From Thermoplasmatales archaeon (lineage in GTDB: Archaea > Thermoplasmatota > Thermoplasmata > Thermoplasmatales > Thermoplasmataceae): 64,000 bases of DNA. Position 1 is the first letter of the stretch. Each line of letters starts with the position of its first letter. The position numbers and the translations under genes were made by a program. The stretch is taken from contig DAIDBH010000018.1 of NCBI GenBank assembly GCA_027310185.1, positions 32,001-96,000 of the forward strand. Reading direction: 5' to 3'. The notes beneath the pieces were generated by a model that worked only from the letters and a program-made list of their open reading frames with translations, was not told the DNA's origin and made no database searches. This document shows positions 4,852 through 30,925 of this stretch, piece by piece.

Positions 4852-6087
4852 ATGAATAATCAAAGTATACACGAATCTAACCAGTGGAATAAATTCCTGA
4901 TGTATCTCATGGGGAGGAATATCATCAGAGTTGCCTATTTCATATTCAACATATTCTTCGTGTGGAGGACAATAGTTGCATACAATTCTGTCTTCCTTGC
5001 TGGACTGATTCCTGCATTCTCACTGCTGGGCTACCTGATCATTGTCATACCGGAAGGCCACATCCTGGACAGGCACAACAGGGGAACAGTATTCAGGATC
5101 ACATCATTCCTTCTGGCATTCACATACCTGATCCTTGTTTACAGCGATTCCCTTGCAATTGTGTATGCTGTAGCACTTGTATCATCCATACTCTCATCAG
5201 TAAATTCAGATGCATTCAACACAATACTCAAGGAGACCGTGAAGGAGGAAAAGATCCAGCATGCAGTATCCCTGAGCCAGGGGACAAACGCAATCTCGGA
5301 GCTGACAGGCATCATTGCCGGCGGAATACTCCTCTACCTTCCCTTTGAGTTCCTTGCCATAACACTCTTTTCACTCCCTGTCATATCCATCATCTTCGGC
5401 CTCAGCAGGACGCTGAACAGGTCAGGCATGGTGGATAAATATGGCTTCCGGGGTGCATACCGCATAATTCTTGTTCTTGTTCCATTCCTCATGCTGTCAC
5501 TTCTACTCAATGGCCTGTTCATATCGCTGGATGTATTCGGTTCCGGCCTGATACACATAATACTTCACGGTTCACCCTTCGATTACTCACTTTTTGTTGC
5601 AGCATTTCCCGTCGGTCTTATTATTGGATCTCTTTTCACGGGCAAGCTTTCCTCCATAATATCAAGAACAGGCACAATATCCATCCTCCTTGTTCCACTG
5701 GGAATAGTGCTACTTCTCATTGCAATTTCACGGATCATCTATGTGGACATAGCCCTGGGAATAGTTCTTGGAATAATTGTGATCCTTGTAAACATAGGCC
5801 TGCAGACCATATTCATGAAGGCAATACCTGACGGTGTCATGGGCAGGGTCAACTCATTGGTTACCATCTTTTCCATAGGTGGATCGCCACTCATGGCTGC
5901 AGCTTTCAGCATACTATCAAATTACTTCTACTTCCCATACATCATGGCTGCTGCAGGCATATGTGCAGTTGCAGTTTCACTTCCAGCTTTCAGCATCCTG
6001 AAAAATTTGCCTGAGAAGGTGGCAGGCATTTCAAGAATAATAGAAAAGGAAGGTGAGGCAGGGATAAGTGAGCAGGAATCAGGATAA
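4852..6087 (+). CDS. MFS transporter (efflux-type)
   Basis: 411 aa, about 12 hydrophobic segments, G.ILDRHNR motif A, IP...MGRVNS. Confidence 0.85.
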   Translation: MNNQSIHESNQWNKFLMYLMGRNIIRVAYFIFNIFFVWRTIVAYNSVFLAGLIPAFSLLGYLIIVIPEGHILDRHNRGTVFRITSFLLAFTYLILVYSDSLAIVYAVALVSSILSSVNSDAFNTILKETVKEEKIQHAVSLSQGTNAISELTGIIAGGILLYLPFEFLAITLFSLPVISIIFGLSRTLNRSGMVDKYGFRGAYRIILVLVPFLMLSLLLNGLFISLDVFGSGLIHIILHGSPFDYSLFVAAFPVGLIIGSLFTGKLSSIISRTGTISILLVPLGIVLLLIAISRIIYVDIALGIVLGIIVILVNIGLQTIFMKAIPDGVMGRVNSLVTIFSIGGSPLMAAAFSILSNYFYFPYIMAAAGICAVAVSLPAFSILKNLPEKVAGISRIIEKEGEAGISEQESG

Positions 6088-6227
6088 AGTTACAATTTTC
6101 TGTACATCCGGTCATTGCTGGTTATTTAAACTCCAGGGAAATATACACATCCCTTCCTGGATCAGTGGCTGCATCTTTCACAATCAAATACTGGAACATG
6201 GTTGTTTCCTGTTAATGAGACTAAACA

Positions 6228-7436
6228 TCAGAATGAAGTTTTAGTCATTGACCTACCAGAGACAATGATAACAATTGAAACAGGAACTACAAGTAATATG
6301 GAAATAAATGCGGTGAAACCCAATCCATAATGAATAATAAGAAAAGGAATGATCAGGACACCAGCCGCTGTAGAAATTCCCCTGAACGTGTAGAGTGAAG
6401 ATGCAGTTCTTCCAAGAAGGTCCTTCCGAACAGAACCCTGAAGATATACATTGAAGAGCATGATGCAAAAATCAAAGAATATACCAGAGGCAACCCAGAT
6501 AGGTATTTCCGCAAATGGATCAACAAACAGGTATGCAGAAACCATCAACAAAATTGTATATGCCATTGCTGAAAAAACAATGCCATACCCGATCCTTTTC
6601 CTCATATTAAGCAGTCCAGAAAACGGTCCTGCAACACTGCCACCCACCATGAAAGATGCATAAAGGATAATGTACCATGAAGAGCCTGATGTGCCCTGCA
6701 GTATAAAGACGGCTGGAGCAAGCCCGAAAAAAGATATCATTGAGAGGTAGATGGCGGTCATAATCAGTGGTTTATGATTAGAAGCAAGATATTTCCAGCT
6801 TGCGAGAAACCCCTTGCTCTCTGTCTTTACAGAATCAACCATGACAAGTGGAATGAATATGCTTACCATGGATGCTGCAGTCATTGCAGCAGAATACAGG
6901 ACTATTGAATCAAAATCTCCAAGAAATATTATGATAACACCTGCCAGAGCAAAGCCCCCAACAGCGTGCGCCCCTGAGATCAGATGGGCATAACCATTCG
7001 CCTTGAAAAATTCTGACTTGCTGACAAGGAAAGGAAGTACCGTATGCCCTGCTGTCCACGCAAAGTTGTCGGATATGGCTATGGCGACTATCACTCCTAT
7101 AAGAATTTCAGGAGTAAGGGATTTCATATACACCATAATCGCCAGAAACATTGAGAATGCTGCGATTGACAAATAGGAAAGTACAAAAATAGTTCTCTTG
7201 TTCCGCACCCTGTCCACAACAGGACCTGTCATGAAAACGAGTGAATATATTCCATACTGGGCAAAAAGGGCTACCCCCACAAAAACAAGGCTTCCAGAAT
7301 AGACATATGAGAATACTGGTATGAAAATGGAATAAATGCTGAAGGCAAGGCTTTTCAATGCAACCTTCAAAAGATAGAGATGAAATCTCCTATTCTTTCT
7401 CAGTGTTAATTTTGCATCATCTTCCATGTAATCCAC
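6228..7436 (-). CDS. MFS transporter
   Basis: 402 aa, about 12 TM segments, GPVVDR.RNKR, V.KDLLGR. Confidence 0.85.
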   Translation of the reverse strand: MDYMEDDAKLTLRKNRRFHLYLLKVALKSLAFSIYSIFIPVFSYVYSGSLVFVGVALFAQYGIYSLVFMTGPVVDRVRNKRTIFVLSYLSIAAFSMFLAIMVYMKSLTPEILIGVIVAIAISDNFAWTAGHTVLPFLVSKSEFFKANGYAHLISGAHAVGGFALAGVIIIFLGDFDSIVLYSAAMTAASMVSIFIPLVMVDSVKTESKGFLASWKYLASNHKPLIMTAIYLSMISFFGLAPAVFILQGTSGSSWYIILYASFMVGGSVAGPFSGLLNMRKRIGYGIVFSAMAYTILLMVSAYLFVDPFAEIPIWVASGIFFDFCIMLFNVYLQGSVRKDLLGRTASSLYTFRGISTAAGVLIIPFLIIHYGLGFTAFISILLVVPVSIVIIVSGRSMTKTSF

Positions 7437-7682
7437 ATTAATCCATTCCCGTAACTGTAATCACTGGAATACCTGAATCCCTTATAAGTTTACAAGGTTA
7501 CTTTCCAGCCTGTTCTTTGTAAATGGTATCATAAGCTCCAAACATCTGGGTTTGCAGGAATCATGGTCATAAATAAAACTTGAAACATTCATGATGAAGA
7601 AATGTTCCCCATTATATCCAACCATGGATGCCATCCAAACTGTAAGGTCACCTTCTTAAGTACCATGACTCAATATTAACAC

Positions 7683-9050
7683 ATGAAAGTTGATGTAATC
7701 ATTATAGGAGCAGGTGGCGGTGCCTATCCAGCCGCATTCAAGCTTGCAGGTTCAGGAAAAACAGTGCTCATGGCAGATCCAAAGGGGGTTCTTGGAGGTA
7801 ATTGCCTGTATCTTGGCTGCATTCCTTCAAAGACTGTCAGGGAACTAATAGAGATAAACGACAGATCAGGGAGGCTGCTCGGTTCCAAAAATCATGCAGA
7901 TTTCAGCTCAATCCAGAAGCACAAGGACGATGTCCAGCAACTGCGTTTTGATCAGCATGACCGGGAAAGGTCTGAGTTCAAGAACCTTGAATTCTTGAAG
8001 GGAAGTGTTAGCTTCACAGGAAGAAACAGTGCAGACGTATCCACAGGGGACGGGAAGGTATCAGTGGAATTTAATCATGCCATCATAGCAACCGGGACCG
8101 TGGTATCAAGGATATCATTCCCCGGTTCTGATCTGTGCATCACAAGCGATGACATATTCTCCTTCGGTACAGGATTCAGGAAAATCCCTGATAAGATGGT
8201 CATTGTTGGCGGAGGATATATAGCACTTGAAGTTGCAGGCATGCTCCACATGCTCGGAACAGAGGTGCACCTTTTCGTCAGGACGGAAACTGTCCTGAGG
8301 AATGTTGATCAGGATCTTGTAAAGATTGCGTATCCACTCATAACACCATTTCGTGTTCACCTGAATACATCCATAAGAGATGTCACCGGAAAGAGGGGAA
8401 AGCTGAAGGTCAACTACACGGAGAACGGGGAGGATATGGAAATGGAAGCCGGAGAAGTCCTCCTTGCCGTAGGAAGGAAGGGCGTGGTTCCCGGTGGGAT
8501 CGATCTCACAGGGGTGAAATACAGCAGCAAGGGAATCATAGAAGTCAGCGACACACTCCAGACGAACATTCCAAATATCTATGCCACAGGTGATATAACC
8601 GGAAGGACACCATACTTTCATGCTGCAGTAAGGGAATCACTTGTTGCAGCCAACAACATAATGGGCACGCATGAGGACAGGATGGATTTCCTCAACGTAC
8701 CTGTTTCCATATTCACGTACCCGCCAGTCTCATATATTGGCATACTGAGGAATGAGGCCAGGGAAAAGGGCATGGATATAGTGGAAACATCCTATGCAAT
8801 GTCAGGAGATGCAAGGGCACAGATGTACGAGGAGCAGGATGGGGAGATAAGGCTGTTCTTTGATAAAAATACTGCCAGGATAGTTGGAGGATGGGTCGTT
8901 GGACTGGATGCACCCGAGCTGATCAACGAGATAGGAACCGCTGTATTCAACTCGCTCACAGCCATGGACATGGCAAGGTTCCCTGATCAGCATCCGACAA
9001 CAAACGAGGGTGTATCAAAGGCAGCGAGGGCATGGAAGGAACCTGAATAA
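7683..9050 (+). CDS. lpdA: Dihydrolipoamide dehydrogenase-like pyridine nucleotide-disulfide oxidoreductase
   Basis: GAGGGA FAD fold, GGNCLYLGCIPSK redox disulfide, GGGYIALE, IYATGD, HPTTNE. Confidence 0.8.
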   Translation: MKVDVIIIGAGGGAYPAAFKLAGSGKTVLMADPKGVLGGNCLYLGCIPSKTVRELIEINDRSGRLLGSKNHADFSSIQKHKDDVQQLRFDQHDRERSEFKNLEFLKGSVSFTGRNSADVSTGDGKVSVEFNHAIIATGTVVSRISFPGSDLCITSDDIFSFGTGFRKIPDKMVIVGGGYIALEVAGMLHMLGTEVHLFVRTETVLRNVDQDLVKIAYPLITPFRVHLNTSIRDVTGKRGKLKVNYTENGEDMEMEAGEVLLAVGRKGVVPGGIDLTGVKYSSKGIIEVSDTLQTNIPNIYATGDITGRTPYFHAAVRESLVAANNIMGTHEDRMDFLNVPVSIFTYPPVSYIGILRNEAREKGMDIVETSYAMSGDARAQMYEEQDGEIRLFFDKNTARIVGGWVVGLDAPELINEIGTAVFNSLTAMDMARFPDQHPTTNEGVSKAARAWKEPE

Positions 9051-21775: not shown

Positions 21776-23950
<2,175 letters not shown>

Positions 23951-24694
23951 TTATATTCAACTCCAGATTGTTTTTTAATATTGATTTATTATTACATAAT
24001 AATAAGTATAATCTATTTAAACATTATCAACAGACTTCCATGTTTATCTACATCCCTACCTGGAGGATGCACAAGAAGATATTGCTCACTTATTTTTCTT
24101 TCCTTTCTCATTATTTATCTCAATGGCCCCTATAATAACTGTTCTCAGCTTTTCCTTTACAACAGCTTCATTCTGAAAACAATCAACCGCTACCACAGAC
24201 CGTAATCCTGAATACCTGAGGGTGAAGGTTAAGGACATATATTCTGCTTACGTGAATTCTGCAATTGTGATTGTTTCCATGATATTAGCAGTGAACCCGC
24301 CCATTGCAACAATATGGCCGTACAATGAGGGCAGGCTCCATAGGCAGTTATTTCGTTGATCTGTTCCTTTACTATTCTATTCCAATATCCTTCATTGAGT
24401 CACTGATATCAGTACTTTAGATGCTTACATGGTCTTCACTTCGCAGGAGATATGCCGGAATAGATTCATCAGGTGGAATTGGAAACATATTGGTAAAGCT
24501 TCCTGCACTTTCTTTCTTCTGTTGCATTTCAAGATCAATATTAAGGATCTATTTTCTCTCACAATAGTCTAAATCATTATAATTGCCATTTTATTCCTTA
24601 TATTATACTTGATAACAATCAAGAAAATTTCAAACAGCAGATTGATTATACGAAAACCAGTGAAAAAAAATTCATTTTATATGAAAGCGTGGGC

Positions 24695-25054
24695 CTACTG
24701 ACCCACACTTTCTACCTTGTGGAATTTCTTCTCAGAGAATTTCCTGAAGTTTCTGAGTCCCTTTGAGAAATCCAGTGCACTGGGTTTCAGATAGAGGTCT
24801 ATATATTCCACAATGTCCATTTCATTATCCCTTGCTTCCTCTGAGATCTTTGCAACAAGGTATGGAACAACATTCTTTGCCTCCCAAATGGACAGATCAT
24901 ATTTCCTGAAAACTTCAAAGATGTCCTCAGAAATTTCGTCCATCTGGATCATTGTATCCCTTGTTACAACATCCCTTGTGTAGGTGGACTTACTCTCGCT
25001 GGCCAAACCATTCTCACCTTTTTCGGTTTCCTTTATCTCCTTTACTTCTGCCAT
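24695..25054 (-). CDS. Hypothetical protein
   Basis: 119-aa ORF with a perfect GGAGGTGA Shine-Dalgarno 4 nt upstream. Confidence 0.8.
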   Translation of the reverse strand: MAEVKEIKETEKGENGLASESKSTYTRDVVTRDTMIQMDEISEDIFEVFRKYDLSIWEAKNVVPYLVAKISEEARDNEMDIVEYIDLYLKPSALDFSKGLRNFRKFSEKKFHKVESVGQ

Positions 25055-25237
25055 TTTGTCACCTCCTTTGAGGCAATATAGTAATTTTAAACTTCTATAA
25101 AAACTTATCGCAATTTCGACTTATAATTAATATAATTTTGCTGTTAATTTTTACATTTTACATCCAGTAAAGGCAGGAATGGCAAACACTGAACAATGAA
25201 ACTGATATTGGGTGAATGTTCTCCAAGATCAAGTGTT

Positions 25238-26317
25238 TTAAGATATCTCTAAGAGATCCTTTGGAGGCTTCTGTGTGAGAAGTTCAAAACCATCCTTTTT
25301 TACCAGAACATCATCCTCTATCCTCACACCGCCATATTCCGGGATATATATTCCAGGTTCAACTGTAACAGCCATGTCTTTTTTCAGGCTAAAATCATAA
25401 CCACCAAAGGCTGGATGATCGTGAACCTCCAGACCTATACCATGTCCAACTCCATGCATCAGCCTGCCCTTATATGGAGAGCTGTCTATGATCTCATAGG
25501 ATTTTGCATTGACATCCCTTCCATTCACGCCTTCCCTTATCATCTTCATGCTTGATTGCTGTGCATCATACACTATGCTGTATATTTCCTTCTGTTTTTC
25601 TGTGGCCCTGCCAAATACTGAAGTTCTTGTCGTATCTGCGTGATATCTTTCAAAGGCAGCTCCATAATCAGTAAGGACAAAATCACCGGGCTTCAGCTTT
25701 CTCTTCCCTGGAGAATGGTGTGGTTCCGATGCATTTGGGCCAAAACATACTATGGTGCTGAAAGATGGCTCCGACGCTCCATTTGACATCATCCTGTATA
25801 CCATATACGCAGCCATTTCTGTCTCTGTCATGCCTTCTTTCAGTTGATCCATCGATGATTCATAGATCTCACTGCTTATCTTTGCCGCTTCCCTTAATTT
25901 TTTTATTTCAGTTTCATCCTTTATCATTCTCGCATCTGCAATGTTCTTTGACACATCCACAAGCTCAGCTTTTCCAGTGAGCTTCTTTACGTTATCAAAC
26001 ATATTTACCGTAAGTGAATCCTTGTTAACACCTATTCTTGACTGGCCTTCAAGCTCCTTTTCAATCATCTCATTCATCTGTGCAGAGGATGATGCAACAT
26101 ACACTTCATGGCCTGTTGATCTGGCTGTCTGTTCTTCCAACTGGTATACAAACATCTTAACCCTGTCCCTGTCTGCAACTATTGCCGAACCCTCAAAAAG
26201 TCCGCCATTTACCTGTGAAAGATAGAAAAAAGACTTGTCAATGGCATTTTCTCCACCATTCCTTATAAGGATCTTTTCAACACCATCAAGATTCCTGAAA
26301 ATATCTTTTACTGTCAT
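25238..26317 (-). CDS. pepQ: Xaa-Pro peptidase (M24B, prolidase)
   Basis: RMIKD..EI, PHH, D.G....Y.AD.TRT, HGVGHGIGLEVHD, TVEPGIY....GGVRIEDD. Confidence 0.92.
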   Translation of the reverse strand: MTVKDIFRNLDGVEKILIRNGGENAIDKSFFYLSQVNGGLFEGSAIVADRDRVKMFVYQLEEQTARSTGHEVYVASSSAQMNEMIEKELEGQSRIGVNKDSLTVNMFDNVKKLTGKAELVDVSKNIADARMIKDETEIKKLREAAKISSEIYESSMDQLKEGMTETEMAAYMVYRMMSNGASEPSFSTIVCFGPNASEPHHSPGKRKLKPGDFVLTDYGAAFERYHADTTRTSVFGRATEKQKEIYSIVYDAQQSSMKMIREGVNGRDVNAKSYEIIDSSPYKGRLMHGVGHGIGLEVHDHPAFGGYDFSLKKDMAVTVEPGIYIPEYGGVRIEDDVLVKKDGFELLTQKPPKDLLEIS

Positions 26318-26433
26318 AAGGTTGAATACTTCTCTATCTAATTTGCTTTCTCGTCATTTAATAGCGAAGGTCAATGATATACTATCTGGGCAAATGTTTT
26401 TATACACTTATATGGTATTTCAACAGGTATTGA

Positions 26434-28311
26434 ATGAGATTATATTCTGGAATGATCGATAAATTCATTGAAGACACTGTAACAAACCAAATAACTGACA
26501 AATTAAAGAAGGCTTTCTTTGATCAGTTAGGTTATAATCCAACCAATAGCGAAATCTCAGCCTGGCAGAACTCCCTAAGGGCAATTTCAGAAATTCTTCA
26601 ATATTCACATTTCCAAGATCAAGGAATAATTCTGGAATATCAGATGCCAAACAACTCAAAAAGGTTGGACTTCCTAATATGTGGAAACAACAATGAAATG
26701 AAGGAAAAAGCAGTAATTATTGAACTCAAACAGTGGGAAAAAACTATGGAATCGGACGGGGAAAATGAAGTTAGAACATTCATAGGCCAGGGCATAAGGG
26801 AAAAACTTCACCCCTCAATACAAGCTGGCCAATATAAACAATATTTGGAGGATTCCGGGACAGTTTTTTACGAAGGTAAAAACCCAGTAATTCTTGATGC
26901 CTGTGCATATCTCCACAATTATAGCAGAAACGTGGATGATCCTATTTTTTCCACAAAGTTTCAAAACGTTCTCTCTAAATATCCTACGTTTACCAAAGAC
27001 GAAACAGGAAAACTGATAGGATTCATCGGAGCAAGAGTCAATGCAGGAGGTGGCCTTAAAGTTTTAAAAAAAATTGAAGAAAGCTCAAGCCGTCCCAGCA
27101 AAAAATTGATGAATTATGTTTCTAAGGTAATCAACGGAGAACCACAATACACATTATTAGATGAACAGTTAATCGTGTATGATAAAATCCTTTCAGCAGT
27201 TAAGAATGGTATTAAGGATGAAAAGAAAAAGGTAATAATAGTGGAAGGAGGTCCAGGCACGGGAAAATCAGTAATAGCAATAAATGTAATGGCTAAATTA
27301 TCAAATGAAGGTTATATTGTGAATTATGCCACAGGATCAAAGGCATTCACAAAAACATTACGAACCATTCTTGGAAAGAGGATCGAACCATTATTAAAGT
27401 TTTTTAACAGTTATGAATCTGAAAAAAACAACTCAGTCGATGTAATCTTAGCTGATGAAGCGCACAGGCTCTGGCATTTAAACAGAAGCCGGTTCACTCC
27501 AAAAACTAAAAGGAGCAATATACCTATCATCGATAATATAATAAGGGCATCCAGAACTTCAGTATTTTTTATTGACAACATGCAAATCATAAGGCCAAAT
27601 GAAGTAGGAACGGTTAAGTATGTAGAAGAAAATGCAAGGAGAAACCAATGTGATGTTGAATACTATAAGCTTGAAGCACAATTTAGATGTAAGGGCTCAG
27701 ATGCATTTATTAACTGGATAAATAACACGTTGAGAATTGAAAGAACTGCAAACTATATGTGGACTGGTGAAGAGAATTTTGATTTTCGGATTTGTAATAG
27801 CCCCCTGGAAGTGGAAAATCTAATAAAAATGAAGATCGAATCTGGAAAATCCGGAAGACTAACAGCTGGATTCTGCTGGGATTGGTCCGATCCAAATGAA
27901 GATGGGACCTTAAAGGATGATGTTCAGATAGGGGGATATAAGAGACCATGGAATGCCAAAAAAGGTATCAAAAAGCAAGCAGGAACGATTCCAGAGTCTG
28001 ACTTATGGGCTCATATGCAAGAGGGATTTGGTCAGATTGGATGTGTCTATACCGTCCAGGGGTTTGAGTTTGATTATATTGGGGTGATATTTGGTCTAGA
28101 TCTCAAATATAATCTAGATAAGCAGAAATGGGAGGGCCACCCGGAAAATTCTCATGATAAATCTATAAGAAAGAAAAAGAATTTTGAGGAATATGCAAAA
28201 AACATCTACAGAATCTTACTTTCGAGAGGAGTGGAAGGCTGTTATGTGTATTTTCAGGACAAGGACACGGAGAGATTTTTTAAAACCAGAATGGAGAATG
28301 TTGATGCCTAA
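26434..28311 (+). CDS. DUF2075 (Schlafen group 3-type) helicase with N-terminal PD-(D/E)XK-like nuclease domain
   Basis: N-terminal LEY....KRLD...IIELKQW and HP..Q...Y; Walker A GGPGTGKS; Walker B ILADEAH; QFRC; GCVYTVQGFEFDYIGV; NIYRILLSRG. Confidence 0.88.
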   Translation: MRLYSGMIDKFIEDTVTNQITDKLKKAFFDQLGYNPTNSEISAWQNSLRAISEILQYSHFQDQGIILEYQMPNNSKRLDFLICGNNNEMKEKAVIIELKQWEKTMESDGENEVRTFIGQGIREKLHPSIQAGQYKQYLEDSGTVFYEGKNPVILDACAYLHNYSRNVDDPIFSTKFQNVLSKYPTFTKDETGKLIGFIGARVNAGGGLKVLKKIEESSSRPSKKLMNYVSKVINGEPQYTLLDEQLIVYDKILSAVKNGIKDEKKKVIIVEGGPGTGKSVIAINVMAKLSNEGYIVNYATGSKAFTKTLRTILGKRIEPLLKFFNSYESEKNNSVDVILADEAHRLWHLNRSRFTPKTKRSNIPIIDNIIRASRTSVFFIDNMQIIRPNEVGTVKYVEENARRNQCDVEYYKLEAQFRCKGSDAFINWINNTLRIERTANYMWTGEENFDFRICNSPLEVENLIKMKIESGKSGRLTAGFCWDWSDPNEDGTLKDDVQIGGYKRPWNAKKGIKKQAGTIPESDLWAHMQEGFGQIGCVYTVQGFEFDYIGVIFGLDLKYNLDKQKWEGHPENSHDKSIRKKKNFEEYAKNIYRILLSRGVEGCYVYFQDKDTERFFKTRMENVDA

Positions 28312-28382
28312 CAATAGATTTGACAAATAGGGACAATCTCATTTTTGAGTAAAGCTAATTTATTGTTAAATGATGTTTCCCG

Positions 28383-28745
28383 ATGGATGAAAACACAACG
28401 GTCAATAACCTGAAGGCTATGGTAAAAGCTTTCGTAGAGGAAAGGGACTGGGATCAGTTCCATAACGCCAAGGATCTTGCAATTGGTGTTTCCACCGAGG
28501 CAGGGGAACTTCTTGACATTTTTAGGTTCAAGTCCAAGGAAGACATGGATGAAATGCTGTCATCAGATGAGAAGAGACAGGAAATAGGTGATGAACTGGC
28601 AGACGTGCTTTACTTCATACTCAGATTTTCTGACAAGTTCAATTTTGATCTTTCAGACGAATTGAGCAGAAAGATGCTTTTAAACGCCAGGAAATATCCT
28701 GCTGAAAAGTCAAAGGGGAGCAACAGGAAATACAATGAAATTTAG
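28383..28745 (+). CDS. MazG-like nucleotide pyrophosphohydrolase (DCTPP1/RS21-C6 type)
   Basis: F..ERDW.QFH..KDLA....TEAGELL.IF, DELADV, K...N..KYP. Confidence 0.93.
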   Translation: MDENTTVNNLKAMVKAFVEERDWDQFHNAKDLAIGVSTEAGELLDIFRFKSKEDMDEMLSSDEKRQEIGDELADVLYFILRFSDKFNFDLSDELSRKMLLNARKYPAEKSKGSNRKYNEI

Positions 28746-28790
28746 AAGATAACTTCACTTACAAAAATGACTTTTTTCTTTATTCAAATC

Positions 28791-29669
28791 CTATTTTTTG
28801 GAGTCATCGTAATAAAAGGTCTCAACTCCCTTTATTCCTGTATCAACCCTGAATATTGAACCTCCGAGGTCATTTGGATCCCTGGGCTGGTTATCGGTGA
28901 GTTTTGCTGAACTTACAAAAAGTTCAGTCATGTTCTTTCCACCGAATACACATGATGTCACATTTGTTGCTGGAAAAATAATCTCGTTCAGTTTCTTTCC
29001 ATTGGAAGGATTCCATCTTGATATCCGGTGGCCTCCCCAGTGGGCAACCCATATCCTCCCCTCAGCATCTATGTTCATACCATCTGGAAATCCAACTTCC
29101 GTGCTGAAATCCACTGCTATCTTTTCATTGGTAAGCTCACATTTTTCATTGTATGTGAAGGATCTGACTTTCCTTGTTGGGGTATCAATGTGGTAAAATG
29201 TCATACTATTTGTATCCCATGCAAGTCCATTTGAAATTGTCTGCCCTCCAAGAACCTTTCTTAACTCTCCTGATTTCGTGTAAACATAGAGTGAAGCCAC
29301 AGGCTCCTTCTCGTTCATGTCCATTGTTCCTGCCCAGTAATTGCCATAGGGATCAACCTTCCCATCGTTGAACCTGTTATTCTCAAGTGAAGTTTCAGTT
29401 TCCGCAAGTACTTTCTCCTTGCCAGTTGAAGTATCAATCGATGTAAATCTATGCCCAATGGTGGCATACATTTTTCCAGATATTGACGGAACAAGAGAAG
29501 ATACCATTCCATCAGTCTTCACAGTCTCTATCCTTCCGCTTGAAAGTTCATAGGATCTGAAAAGATGTCCCTTAATATCAACCCAGTAAACCCTGTTGTT
29601 CCTCTTATCCCAGGTAGGGCCTTCACCAAGAATCTCTGTTTGTTTTGAAATAATCTCTATATTGTCCAT
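28791..29669 (-). CDS. SMP-30/gluconolactonase/LRE family protein
   Basis: LGEGP.WD, NRFNDGKVDP.G, ISNGLAW, GFPDGM.ID.EG..WVA.W. Confidence 0.92.
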   Translation of the reverse strand: MDNIEIISKQTEILGEGPTWDKRNNRVYWVDIKGHLFRSYELSSGRIETVKTDGMVSSLVPSISGKMYATIGHRFTSIDTSTGKEKVLAETETSLENNRFNDGKVDPYGNYWAGTMDMNEKEPVASLYVYTKSGELRKVLGGQTISNGLAWDTNSMTFYHIDTPTRKVRSFTYNEKCELTNEKIAVDFSTEVGFPDGMNIDAEGRIWVAHWGGHRISRWNPSNGKKLNEIIFPATNVTSCVFGGKNMTELFVSSAKLTDNQPRDPNDLGGSIFRVDTGIKGVETFYYDDSKK

Positions 29670-30037
29670 AAAACCTTAGAACTTCAATCAATAAAACGTA
29701 TGCGCTTGAAATTAAAATCAAAAATTCATAATATCTTTTAGACACATTCAGTTTGTCAGTAGCCGGTTGAATTTTTAAAACTGATGTTATGGTTTACACA
29801 TCTGCATAACCATAGTACTCACAATAGTATGTTTTATTATATGCAGAAGTAGTATACAATTTGAAAATATAGAGATCTTTTAGTGAAGATCAAATACTAT
29901 CGCTTTGAAGTTTTTAACACTCTTGGAGCATCCAGATTCTTTTTTCAAAATTTGAAATCCTGTGTCTAACCAACTTTCAACTTTTAACAAGATTAAGAAT
30001 ATTAAAGGAAATGTATAAAGTAGTCCTCAATTAACAA

Positions 30038-30925
30038 TCATGTTGTATTATCTCCGCTCCATGACGGACCCTGAACACCACTTGCAGCCTTTTCCACAAG
30101 TTCAATTTCTTCCGGTGTCATCTTCCATCCCATTGATCCTGCATTTTCCCTCACATGGTCAGGATTCGATGCTCTTGGAATGGGATAGACAAAGTCATAC
30201 TTACTGAAAAACCAGTTGAGAGCGATCTGTGGCATGGTCTTCCTTCCATGATTCTTCTCAATTTCACTCAAGACCTCTTTTCCCAGAGATGATTCAGAAG
30301 TTAGCATTCCGTGGGCAAGTGGATAATATGCAAGTATTGCAATTCCATTTTCTCTGCAATACGGAACCAGATCTTTTTCAATATTCCTGTGGGCAACATT
30401 GAAGTTCATCTGTGTTGACCTGATTTCATATTTCTTCATGAATGAAACCGCCTCCTTTGTCTGTTCAAGGTTGAAATTGCTTATTCCTATATGCCTGATC
30501 TTTCCTTCATCCTGAAGATGCTCCAATCCTCTCAAAGCCTCCTTTACCTTGTCAGAACTTGAATGCATGTGCAGCTGGTACAGATCTATGTAATCTGTTT
30601 CCAGTTTTCTCAGGCTTCTTTCACATGATTTTATAACACCGTCGTAGGAGTAATGAAGTGGGAAAACCTTGGTTGCTATGAATAATTCATCTCTCTTCTT
30701 CCCCTTTATAGCCTCTGCAACAAAGGGCTCTGTTTCATATATTTCTGCGGTGTCTATGAAATTAATTCCAGAATCTAATGCAGCTTTTATGGCATTGACC
30801 CTCCTTGCCTTTCCCGGCTTTATTCGCAATGTCTTTGCAAGACCTATCCACTTGAAATCGTAATATGTACCTACACCCATGGGTGTTATCATGGAGTCAG
30901 TGCTTCCAAACTTAACCTTTTCCAT
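30038..30925 (-). CDS. Aldo/keto reductase
   Basis: GINFIDTAEIY, IATK, SL.KL.TDYIDLYQLH, IGISNF, AYYPLAHG. Confidence 0.92.
   Translation of the reverse strand: MEKVKFGSTDSMITPMGVGTYYDFKWIGLAKTLRIKPGKARRVNAIKAALDSGINFIDTAEIYETEPFVAEAIKGKKRDELFIATKVFPLHYSYDGVIKSCERSLRKLETDYIDLYQLHMHSSSDKVKEALRGLEHLQDEGKIRHIGISNFNLEQTKEAVSFMKKYEIRSTQMNFNVAHRNIEKDLVPYCRENGIAILAYYPLAHGMLTSESSLGKEVLSEIEKNHGRKTMPQIALNWFFSKYDFVYPIPRASNPDHVRENAGSMGWKMTPEEIELVEKAASGVQGPSWSGDNTT

Follow-up and report, generated by a model that had tools for sequence, protein, structure and literature searches.

A sporadic nuclease-helicase and MazG-like gene pair in a Thermoplasmatales archaeon: a possible mobile module against foreign DNA

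Positions 26,434 to 28,745 of a 64,000 nucleotide stretch of DNA from a Thermoplasmatales archaeon (GenBank assembly GCA_027310185.1, contig DAIDBH010000018.1, positions 32,001 to 96,000 of the forward strand; hereafter the window) hold two genes that are considered here as a pair: a large one, specifying a predicted nuclease-helicase of 625 aa (26434..28311), and a small one, specifying a MazG-like protein of 120 aa (28383..28745). Both are open reading frames (ORFs) on the plus strand with ATG starts, and they are separated by a spacer of 71 bp (28312..28382). The flanking genes, as identified with Pfam, are both on the minus strand, opposed to the pair, and encode a 'pepQ' type protein with Peptidase_M24 and Creatinase_N domains (25238..26317) and an SGL/SMP-30 protein (28791..29669). 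An earlier description made without database searches (the sequence-only reading) had pointed out this co-oriented pair lying against the strand of its flanks, and had also judged the large gene to be richer in AT than pepQ. The ORF listing and Pfam assignments agree with the first observation and base composition with the second, the GC content being 0.365 for the helicase gene versus 0.417 for pepQ, 0.414 for the SGL gene and 0.410 for the window as a whole. The MazG gene, at 0.413, is not more AT-rich than its surroundings.

The large protein is predicted from its conserved motifs and structural model to be a PD-(D/E)xK nuclease fused to a DUF2075 helicase of superfamily 1B (SF1B), with all of its catalytic motifs intact. 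The helicase core was recognized by Pfam as PF09848 (SLFN-g3_helicase, formerly DUF2075) on residues 265-609 (27226..28260; E 1.5e-82), and residues 1-264 matched no Pfam family. Conservation was assessed in 57 full-length homologues and 46 N-terminal domains. Within the predicted nuclease domain, which spans approximately residues 1-230 (26434..27123), E68, R77, D79, E97, K99, Q100, W101, H126, P127, Y134 and H161 are invariant in both sets, L98 is invariant in the full-length homologues and nearly so in the N-terminal domains, and S128 and Q130 are nearly invariant, giving the layout E68, R77-x-D79, E97-L98-K99 and H126-P127-S128-x-Q130...Y134. The E...RxD...ELK and Q...Y motifs that were picked out by eye in the sequence-only reading are therefore real, with every named residue invariant or, for L98 and Q130, at least nearly so. 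In the helicase part, the Walker A motif GGPGTGKS (272-279) is invariant in the 57 full-length homologues; in the DEAH motif (341-344), D341, E342 and H344 are likewise invariant and A343 is nearly so.

Structural comparisons lead in the same direction. The AlphaFold2 (AF2) model of the full-length protein has a mean predicted local distance difference test score (pLDDT) of 88.3, and that of residues 1-240 a score of 93.9. With Foldseek, the full-length model matched RecD, RecD2, Dda, Dna2, SLFN11 and SLFN14 at E 1e-11 to 1e-8, and the N-terminal domain alone gave no match at E ≤ 1e-3. In an exhaustive VIA search with the N-terminal domain, the top rows were almost all nucleases of the restriction-endonuclease fold, namely VC1899 (Z 8.2), Cdn1 (Z 7.7), Can2 (Z 7.6 and 7.4), the Upx nuclease domain (Z 7.0), Card1 (Z 6.9), McrC (Z 6.5) and NucS (Z 6.5), along with many type II enzymes at lower Z and the HsdR fragment 3h1t at Z 4.6. 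Because the Z values are only moderate, the domain was assigned as a nuclease from the list of folds and the invariant D...ExK motif jointly. A search of solved structures with the helicase profile gave matches at the P-loop level only. Taken with the conserved motifs, the helicase matches and the restriction-endonuclease-fold matches uphold the nuclease-helicase fusion that had been proposed.

At least 7986 homologues of the large protein were found at E ≤ 1e-10 by a search that scored its 8000 best candidates. The best 120 listed are 55–81% identical to it, beside the window's own protein at 100%, and named homologues include those of Leptospirales, Omnitrophica, Chloroflexota and Thermoplasmataceae. 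This very large family is conserved to an unusual degree and has members in archaea and many bacterial phyla. A scan with the helicase profile of one genome per species in the collection gave 80 loci in more than 20 phyla of bacteria and archaea, and in 11 of the 80 (L020, L022, L023, L039, L041, L043, L050, L081, L094, L096 and L097) the helicase is a longer form of 726–841 aa. The extra C-terminal domain of the L022 form (6001-8397), the one long form that was checked with Pfam, is a Peptidase_S24 domain. When the 11 tails are aligned, Ala-Ala-Gly is found in 9/11, Val-Lys in 9/11 and Gly-x-Ser-Met in 10/11; the tail of L020 is without all three motifs and that of L097 without two, and all three are also kept in L051, where the domain is a 155-aa ORF of its own downstream of the helicase. 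We take these motifs to be the counterparts of the LexA self-cleavage site and Ser-Lys dyad, and their presence suggests that the S24-tailed forms may be controlled by self-cleavage triggered by filaments of RecA on single-stranded DNA. The window's large protein has no S24 domain.

The long forms bring in the first alternative to an antiviral function, in which the pair would serve genome maintenance: the nuclease-helicase would process stalled forks or damaged DNA and the MazG protein would clean the pool of deoxynucleoside triphosphates (dNTPs), with less mutagenesis after damage as the result. Control of the RecA/SOS type, as indicated by the 11 long forms among the 80, the S24 domain of L022 and the LexA-like tail motifs, would suit such a role, and so would the response to replication stress of eukaryotic Schlafens carrying the PF09848 helicase, as reported in the consulted part of PMC6765204. 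This alternative is taken up again below, where the distribution of the genes is described.

The genome also carries a second full-length DUF2075 paralogue (G000:C4:185630-187351), a 609-aa frame 27% identical to the window's protein. This type of paralogue is more widely kept in relatives (G011, G012, G009, G017, G018 and G023), and it is without a MazG partner, since the genome has only one MazG match.

The small protein is, by sequence, a DCTPP1-type MazG and is expected from its motifs to have pyrophosphohydrolase activity. It matches PF12643 (MazG-like) in Pfam with E 8.8e-12 and 45.5 bits, compared with a cut-off of 27, and its best solved relatives are mouse and human DCTPP1 (E 1.3e-16), to which residues 5-119 align without gaps, so the DCTPP1-type identity given to it in the sequence-only reading holds. 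The metal sites E39-x-x-E42 and E71-x-x-D74, together with R21, W23 and K97, are invariant in 39 MazG relatives and the metal motifs line up with EVGE and ELSD of the mouse protein; it is because the ExxE and ExxD motifs are intact that an active enzyme would be expected. DCTPP1 prefers deoxycytidine triphosphate (dCTP) and 5-modified dCTP, and in mammals it protects DNA from cytosine nucleotides that carry modifications. Longer relatives of the MazG protein (P0121-P0138) are fused to Ham1 (PF01725), which we take to be the inosine triphosphatase (ITPase) family, to a guanylate-kinase/AAA-kinase domain or to a domain of the inositol-monophosphatase family, and these fusions point to a role for the family in the chemistry of the nucleotide pool. 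In the 23 longer MazG relatives that were examined, MazG is never fused to DUF2075. An open frame of 746 aa that surrounds the MazG gene of G352 was dismissed as a spurious high-GC frame over an unrelated gene, and an NDT_II-A match of one MazG member in PADLOC (E 0.0062) as noise. The fusions to house-cleaning enzymes and nucleotide kinases are again compatible with genome maintenance, as is the finding that this MazG clade is widespread as a stand-alone gene and apparently vertically kept.

Intact catalytic sites in the MazG protein are also what would be required by abortive infection, the second of the two models offered in the sequence-only reading. In this model the helicase senses viral replication and sets off DNA cleavage along with bulk hydrolysis of dCTP or dNTPs by MazG, so that replication stops. 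There are partial precedents in the literature: MazG-like effector variants of the PUA-calcineurin-HAD defence are mentioned in the excerpt consulted (10.64898/2026.01.15.699771), and MazG is among the predicted, unvalidated domains in that of DefensePredictor (PMC13092281). The same MazG clade is, however, present unregulated and stand-alone in many genomes, which makes a lethal bulk depletion of dNTPs unlikely, and the 120-aa protein has no sensor or regulatory domain. Abortive infection is accordingly viewed as very improbable.

The association of the two genes was examined in the 80 loci, where MazG was located by tblastn with the window's MazG. In 46 of the 80 it shares the strand of the helicase gene and lies no more than 300 bp from it, in two gene orders (upstream in 39 and downstream in 7); it is adjacent on the opposite strand in two more (L058 and L060) and 0.66–2.7 kb away in five; 25 loci have full flanks and no MazG, and the remaining two have incomplete flanks. 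The partner does not occur wherever the main gene does, as 25 of the 78 full-flank loci lack it, and the link is thus frequent but facultative. Spacing is generally tight: both ORFs were called for 32 upstream pairs, and in 28 of these, as is usual in bacteria, they overlap or are no more than 10 bp apart, with actual overlap in 13, compared with a gap of 71 bp in the window. Among 401 genomes of Thermoplasmatota, the MazG profile is found in 151 and the helicase profile (E ≤ 1e-60) in 40; MazG is present in 33/40 helicase genomes versus 118/361 others, a cross-tally made by hand on related genomes that are not independent samples. Six of the 40 helicase genomes of the phylum have the two genes side by side, on the same strand in four (G000, G269, G156 and G252) and convergent in two (G043 and G201). 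Chance adjacency of a single-copy gene is estimated at about 1 genome in 1000, and the observed adjacency is far beyond this.

A tree of 75 helicases (FastTree) has the upstream arrangement in both main clades and the downstream arrangement in an actinobacterial group and, separately, in the window. The paired or unpaired state changes at least 14 times on this tree, with linkage maintained across three or more arrangements. The two genes are a recurrent unit, as looked for in the co-occurrence check suggested with the sequence-only reading, and MazG is selectively kept beside the nuclease-helicase.

The tight translational coupling of the pair in bacteria might be read as a sign of a toxin-antitoxin-like arrangement, with a toxic nuclease-helicase that MazG neutralizes, by binding it or by removing an activating nucleotide, until infection occurs. 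From the consulted part of 10.1101/776245 it can be added that one homologue of Nhi (a staphylococcal nuclease-helicase compared with the window's protein at the end of this text) was toxic on induction, and that full-length Nhi is auto-inhibited. Yet many helicases persist without MazG, including the nearest relatives of the window's protein, and the MazG proteins retain all catalytic residues and exchange with stand-alone enzymes, all of which leaves this arrangement extremely improbable.

A plasmid of B. thuringiensis, pBMB400 (NZ_CP007616.1; L123:2323-5914), which was the one inspected of 62 Bacillus plasmid records with a match to the window's protein, carries three genes in a row: a 107-aa NTP pyrophosphohydrolase of the PF01503 type, a 350-aa HNH_4 endonuclease and a 637-aa DUF2075 protein. 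The last is a full-length homologue, 25% identical to the window's (PF09848, E 4.2e-53). The 107-aa pyrophosphohydrolase has no significant similarity to the window's MazG and is a non-orthologous partner; because a non-orthologous enzyme of the same superfamily occupies the same position, a functional, and not merely historical, link between the two activities can be argued.

Some loci, mostly ones without MazG, have another protein family upstream of the helicase, of about 285 aa and without a Pfam match (L021:2164-3030, L052:5119-5973, L039:3832-5052, L050:4400-5998 and L051:4032-5753). It is directly upstream in L021, L050 and L052, and the longer form in L050 carries TPR repeats. In four of the five loci a search for MazG within 6 kb was negative; the exception is L050, with MazG 660 bp downstream. 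In the Atlas, the family matches 'hypothetical protein' clusters only. It may be an alternative partner of the helicase.

The pair is sporadic, horizontally mobile and not vertically conserved. Only one of 40 relatives (G018) has an orthologue of the large protein (40% identity, E 3e-153), and there its neighbors are a Fic/DOC gene on one side and a PIN/MazE pair on the other, the MazG-like gene being about 600 kb away. In the closest genomes, G011 and G012, the flanks are 77–81% identical in DNA and pepQ and SGL are in the same order, with a 683-aa ORF in the place of the cassette (L098:3567-5618 in G012; L099 in G011). The ORF has no Pfam family; it is rich in Asn-x-Ser/Thr and has a hydrophobic N-terminal stretch, and from these features it looks like a secreted or surface protein. 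Remnants of the cassette remain at both of its ends in these sister genomes. On the left are the promoter-proximal region and about 140 bp from the start of the helicase gene, in which stop codons have appeared (tblastn recovered residues 1-49 with two TAA stops), and on the right are the last ~35–41 bp of the MazG gene. In blastn searches and alignments against G012 and G011, the alignable parts are limited to the first ~60–150 bp and the last ~35–41 bp, which bounds the cassette at 26415..28745 on the plus strand. With remnants at both ends, it follows that the cassette was present, in the gene order of the window, in the common ancestor and that its interior was later replaced as one block. 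The presence/absence check in relatives that had been called for thus shows a pair that is not inherited vertically, with an orthologue in 1/40 and remnants in the sisters.

Wider comparisons show the same mobility. Proteins from many bacterial phyla are 55–63% identical to the window's large protein, and homologues occur on plasmids (90 records) and are rare in phage records (4/50,697). Patchy distribution, horizontal transfer and a variable locus are all found for the pair. The best plasmid homologue, from Hymenobacter canadensis (NZ_CP114769.1, 15064-28950; L120), has 42% identity. That plasmid has two DUF2075 genes in tandem, next to a gene for a site-specific DNA methyltransferase, a DUF4747 gene and transposase fragments, and no MazG was found at this locus by tblastn.

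The genes that accompany the homologues elsewhere were surveyed in two ways. When all ORFs of the 80 loci were clustered and representatives checked against Pfam, the recurrent neighbors included three clusters of HNH_2 endonucleases, in 8, 3 and 3 loci (L041 and L047 being counted in two), a PD-(D/E)xK nuclease (5 loci), RadC (4 loci), a HIT-PLD-ResIII-DUF3427 helicase (4 loci) and YhcG (3 loci), as well as second DUF2075 paralogues. For each locus the two closest ORFs of 150 aa or more were taken as nearest neighbors, and 134 of the resulting 142 were scanned, the last 8 in locus order being dropped. HNH_2 was the commonest of 128 Pfam families among them (9/134), and RadC was present in 3/134. 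At E ≤ 1e-10, PADLOC models matched HNH nine times, PbeA three times, a type IV methyl-directed restriction endonuclease twice (E 1.9e-262) and a type I restriction endonuclease twice, with single matches to BrxP, DrmD, HmaA, BrxH, PDC-S05 and PDC-S02. One HNH_2 neighbor matches PDB entry 6yex, 'HNH endonuclease', with E 2.8e-9 over the HNH region, and we take this to be a modification-dependent enzyme. In the consulted part of Lutz et al. 2019, DUF2075 NTPases are described beside modification-dependent endonucleases of the McaZI group and a joint action is proposed. The link to defense genes that the sequence-only reading wished to see examined has therefore come out in two parts: it is absent around the window, and strong PADLOC neighbors do occur at homologues elsewhere, in counts without matched controls.

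The distribution and the neighborhoods also bear on genome maintenance. RadC among the nearest neighbors and the housekeeping genes that flank the pair in the window would fit it, in addition to the points given earlier. Against it are the sporadic occurrence of the family (an orthologue in 1/40 relatives, and 40/401 genomes of the phylum), the replacement of the cassette in sister genomes, cross-domain horizontal transfer at 55–63% identity, carriage on plasmids, the presence of restriction-type neighbors, and the homology of the large protein to verified anti-phage proteins. Genes that are sporadic, replaced, transferred and plasmid-borne have the hallmarks of accessory conflict genes and not of core repair, and genome maintenance is therefore considered an unlikely role.

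The reading we favor is that the pair forms a horizontally mobile module acting against foreign DNA, most likely viral, and consisting of a nuclease-helicase of the Nhi type and an accessory enzyme of the nucleotide pool; we would give it about an even chance of being correct. A number of observations weigh against it. The reading is built on sequence, structure and genome comparison. No defense island is found in the window, as the surrounding genes, by Pfam assignment of the window's proteins, are metabolic. The defense-type neighbors of homologues elsewhere are no more than suggestive, being counts without a matched control set. The large protein family matches Nhi, AbiO and PDC-S41 only weakly and in part (best E 9.7e-27), and there is no PADLOC model for the MazG family, none of whose 39 members gave a real match. 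A preference of the window's MazG for dCTP-type nucleotides would be one carried over from DCTPP1. The linkage has its own exceptions: 25 of 78 full-flank loci have no MazG within 6 kb of the helicase, and L018 and L071, the Thermoplasmatota helicases with which the window's groups (support 99) and its closest relatives, are both without it. The MazG clade also occurs stand-alone, the 151 of 401 phylum genomes that have it being mostly ones where it is unlinked to any helicase, and in many Thermoplasmatota stand-alone MazG proteins 50–60% identical to the window's are found among unrelated genes. In a tree of MazG with 60 rows, genes that are paired and genes that stand alone are intermixed, with 7 changes, and the well-supported clade of the window's MazG holds 14 paired and 8 stand-alone genes; the window's MazG does not come from a dedicated lineage. 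Lastly, the two genes of the window differ in GC (0.365 vs 0.413), and MazG may have a separate promoter in the 71-bp gap.

Several of these observations would also be explained if the helicase were a self-sufficient, Nhi-like defense and MazG an uncoupled house-cleaning gene travelling beside it. Nhi and Nhi-like proteins act alone according to the portions consulted of the reports describing them (cited below), MazG is missing from 25/78 full-flank loci, stand-alone genes of the same MazG clade are common, no fused MazG-helicase was seen among the 23 longer MazG relatives, and in the window itself the 71-bp gap, the possible promoter and the differing GC would all suit two independent genes. 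What this does not account for is adjacency in 48/80 loci, surviving changes of order and strand, when chance adjacency is expected in about 1 genome in 1000; nor the overlap of start and stop codons in 13/32 upstream pairs, the loss of both genes together in the sister genomes, or the non-orthologous NTP pyrophosphatase beside the 25%-identical Bacillus helicase. An uncoupled MazG is for these reasons regarded as quite improbable.

If the pair is a module against foreign DNA, the large protein would, as inferred from Nhi, load on replication or recombination intermediates of the invader, unwind them and degrade them with a nuclease that would be Mg-dependent. The MazG protein would probably act as a free enzyme and not as a structural subunit, an enzymatic role being favored because MazG exchanges with stand-alone genes and is fused to pool-cleaning enzymes in other proteins, and it would hydrolyze nucleotides of the dCTP type, especially those with modified bases. 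Two benefits can be imagined: MazG could starve viruses that build modified DNA, and it could bar modified nucleotides released by DNA breakdown from entering the host's DNA, where neighboring modification-dependent nucleases would cut. Any one specific role for MazG is much less probable than the antiviral module as a whole.

One such role is nevertheless put forward tentatively, as a possibility on the doubtful side: MazG may be a 'nucleotide-pool editor' that, with the nuclease-helicase, forms one immune strategy against chemically modified viral DNA. By destroying the modified dNTPs of the virus, such as 5-substituted dCTP, it would force the virus to build ordinary DNA that can be attacked, and by keeping the modified nucleotides of degraded viral DNA out of the host chromosome, it would prevent the modification-dependent HNH nucleases that are often beside the pair from being triggered. 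The Bacillus row of pyrophosphatase, HNH protein and 25%-identical helicase could then be a convergent assembly of the same three-part logic.

Should the partnership be functional, it would tie DNA-degrading immunity to control of the nucleotide pool and would provide a prokaryotic role for the DCTPP1 family, and since cultured carriers of the family exist, among them Parageobacillus caldoxylosilyticus NBRC 107762 (L025) and Paraburkholderia sediminicola (L044), the idea is cheap to test. To the family, the window contributes a copy from an archaeon with the helicase first, which is the rarer order, and a remnant-flanked replacement in sister genomes, and the present analysis adds the mixing of paired and stand-alone genes on the MazG tree and the non-orthologous Bacillus triad.

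Other features of the window can be dealt with briefly. Inspection of the sequence showed an A/T-rich, TATA-like element, TTTTTATAC (26397..26405, plus strand), about 30 nt before the helicase ATG, and this TTTTTATAC element may be an archaeal promoter giving a leaderless or short-leader helicase mRNA. The remnant that can still be recognized in the sister genomes includes this upstream stretch. The 71-bp spacer has a T-run, CATTTTTGAG, and an A/T-rich sequence, TAATTTATT, about 26 nt before the MazG ATG, so the MazG gene may have a promoter of its own there, with the T-run as a possible terminator. The wider window encodes KatG, an AMP-binding enzyme, a P-type ATPase and an aldo-keto reductase, and also a YgjP-like peptidase, an ArsR-type regulator, an ABC ATPase and an M13 peptidase (all by Pfam). 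The KatG-like catalase-peroxidase gene (21776-23950) has a GC content of 0.47–0.50, compared with 0.41 for the window, and may be another acquired gene. The host genome is 1.88 Mb, and the named relatives of the window's proteins are Thermoplasmata. Contigs from RNA libraries (two runs, one 'microbial fuel cell metagenome' sample, one study) are identical to the window across both genes and the flanks (24500-30500), leaving positions 26252-26532 and 29656-29957 uncovered; one starts at 26434, and another, of 3,123 nt, spans the helicase gene (from 26533) and MazG and runs into SGL. Such contigs cannot show transcription, a single transcript or how strongly genes are expressed, and neither the uncovered positions nor the start at 26434 count as evidence; what the contigs do establish is that the organism of the window, or its DNA, was present in the fuel-cell sample.

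The closest known counterpart of the large protein is Nhi (SERP2475) of Staphylococcus epidermidis. As given in the consulted part of Bari et al. (10.1101/776245), Nhi is a 606-aa protein with a PD-(D/E)xK nuclease domain of ~230 aa, modelled on the HsdR fragment 3h1t, followed by a DUF2075 SF1 helicase, and protection against phage needs both the nuclease and the helicase activities. The window's protein has the same architecture, a predicted N-terminal PD-(D/E)xK nuclease of ~230 aa and a DUF2075 helicase with Walker A and B motifs, at a similar length (625 vs 606 aa), and both nuclease domains match 3h1t. Both families are also sporadic and horizontally spread. They differ in that Nhi is a single gene, whereas the window's family keeps a MazG partner in 46–48 of 80 loci, and in that Nhi homologues are reported from three bacterial phyla in the same portion of that paper (10.1101/776245), whereas the window's family is also found in archaea. 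At the level of sequence, the PADLOC model for Nhi aligns with residues 238-465 only (E 3.8e-16; the best among the 57 relatives is 4e-20), and, there being no full-length profile match, the protein was not placed in the Nhi sequence family itself and is assigned to a related branch of the superfamily. The 57 family members matched the PADLOC models for PDC-S41 (57/57; best E 9.7e-27), AbiO (56; best E 1.2e-19) and Nhi (54). Membership of PDC-S41 (PDLC05014, 657 positions) was likewise rejected, as the window's protein matches it with E 5.8e-20 and its best stretch covers 539-607 only. By these profile comparisons the family is a separate branch of the Nhi superfamily, and PADLOC 2.0 contains no model specific to this branch.

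A second verified anti-phage protein, 'Nhi-like', was named for its domain layout of an N-terminal nuclease and DUF2075 (Millman et al. 2022, 10.1101/2022.05.11.491447). In the part of that report consulted it is described as stand-alone, and it can be likened to the window's protein by layout only. Of the 45 candidates in that study, 24 conferred no protection. Group 3 Schlafens (SLFN11 and SLFN14) have the same helicase family, PF09848, and match at E 4e-11 to 2e-9 with Foldseek, but their N-terminal nuclease domain is a different one, without the PD-(D/E)xK motif, and they have no MazG partner. For the small protein, the comparison is with DCTPP1/RS21-C6 (PDB 6sqw, 2a3q and 2oie), with which it has the ExxE, ExxD, W, H, K and N positions in common over 115 ungapped residues, the window's MazG being a 120-aa prokaryotic protein and DCTPP1 a mammalian one. 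Defenses that deplete nucleotides include dCTP deaminase and dGTPase. Like the pair of the window, nucleotide-depleting defenses use an enzyme that acts on dNTPs, but they are without a nuclease-helicase, and the window's MazG differs from them in having no sensor domain and in being common as a stand-alone gene as well. In the dNTP-depleting PUA-calcineurin-HAD defense, the excerpt consulted describes rare variants in which a MazG-like domain replaces the effector (10.64898/2026.01.15.699771), and that of DefensePredictor (PMC13092281), where MazG is one of the predicted and experimentally unvalidated defense domains, names no partner for it. No description of the helicase-MazG pair was found in full-text literature searches, and it is not in PADLOC 2.0, in agreement with the sequence-only reading, in which it was not taken for a named, validated system. 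Single-gene weapons of the Nhi type are thus known, and a conserved partnership of such a protein with a nucleotide pyrophosphatase is new as far as the searched literature shows.

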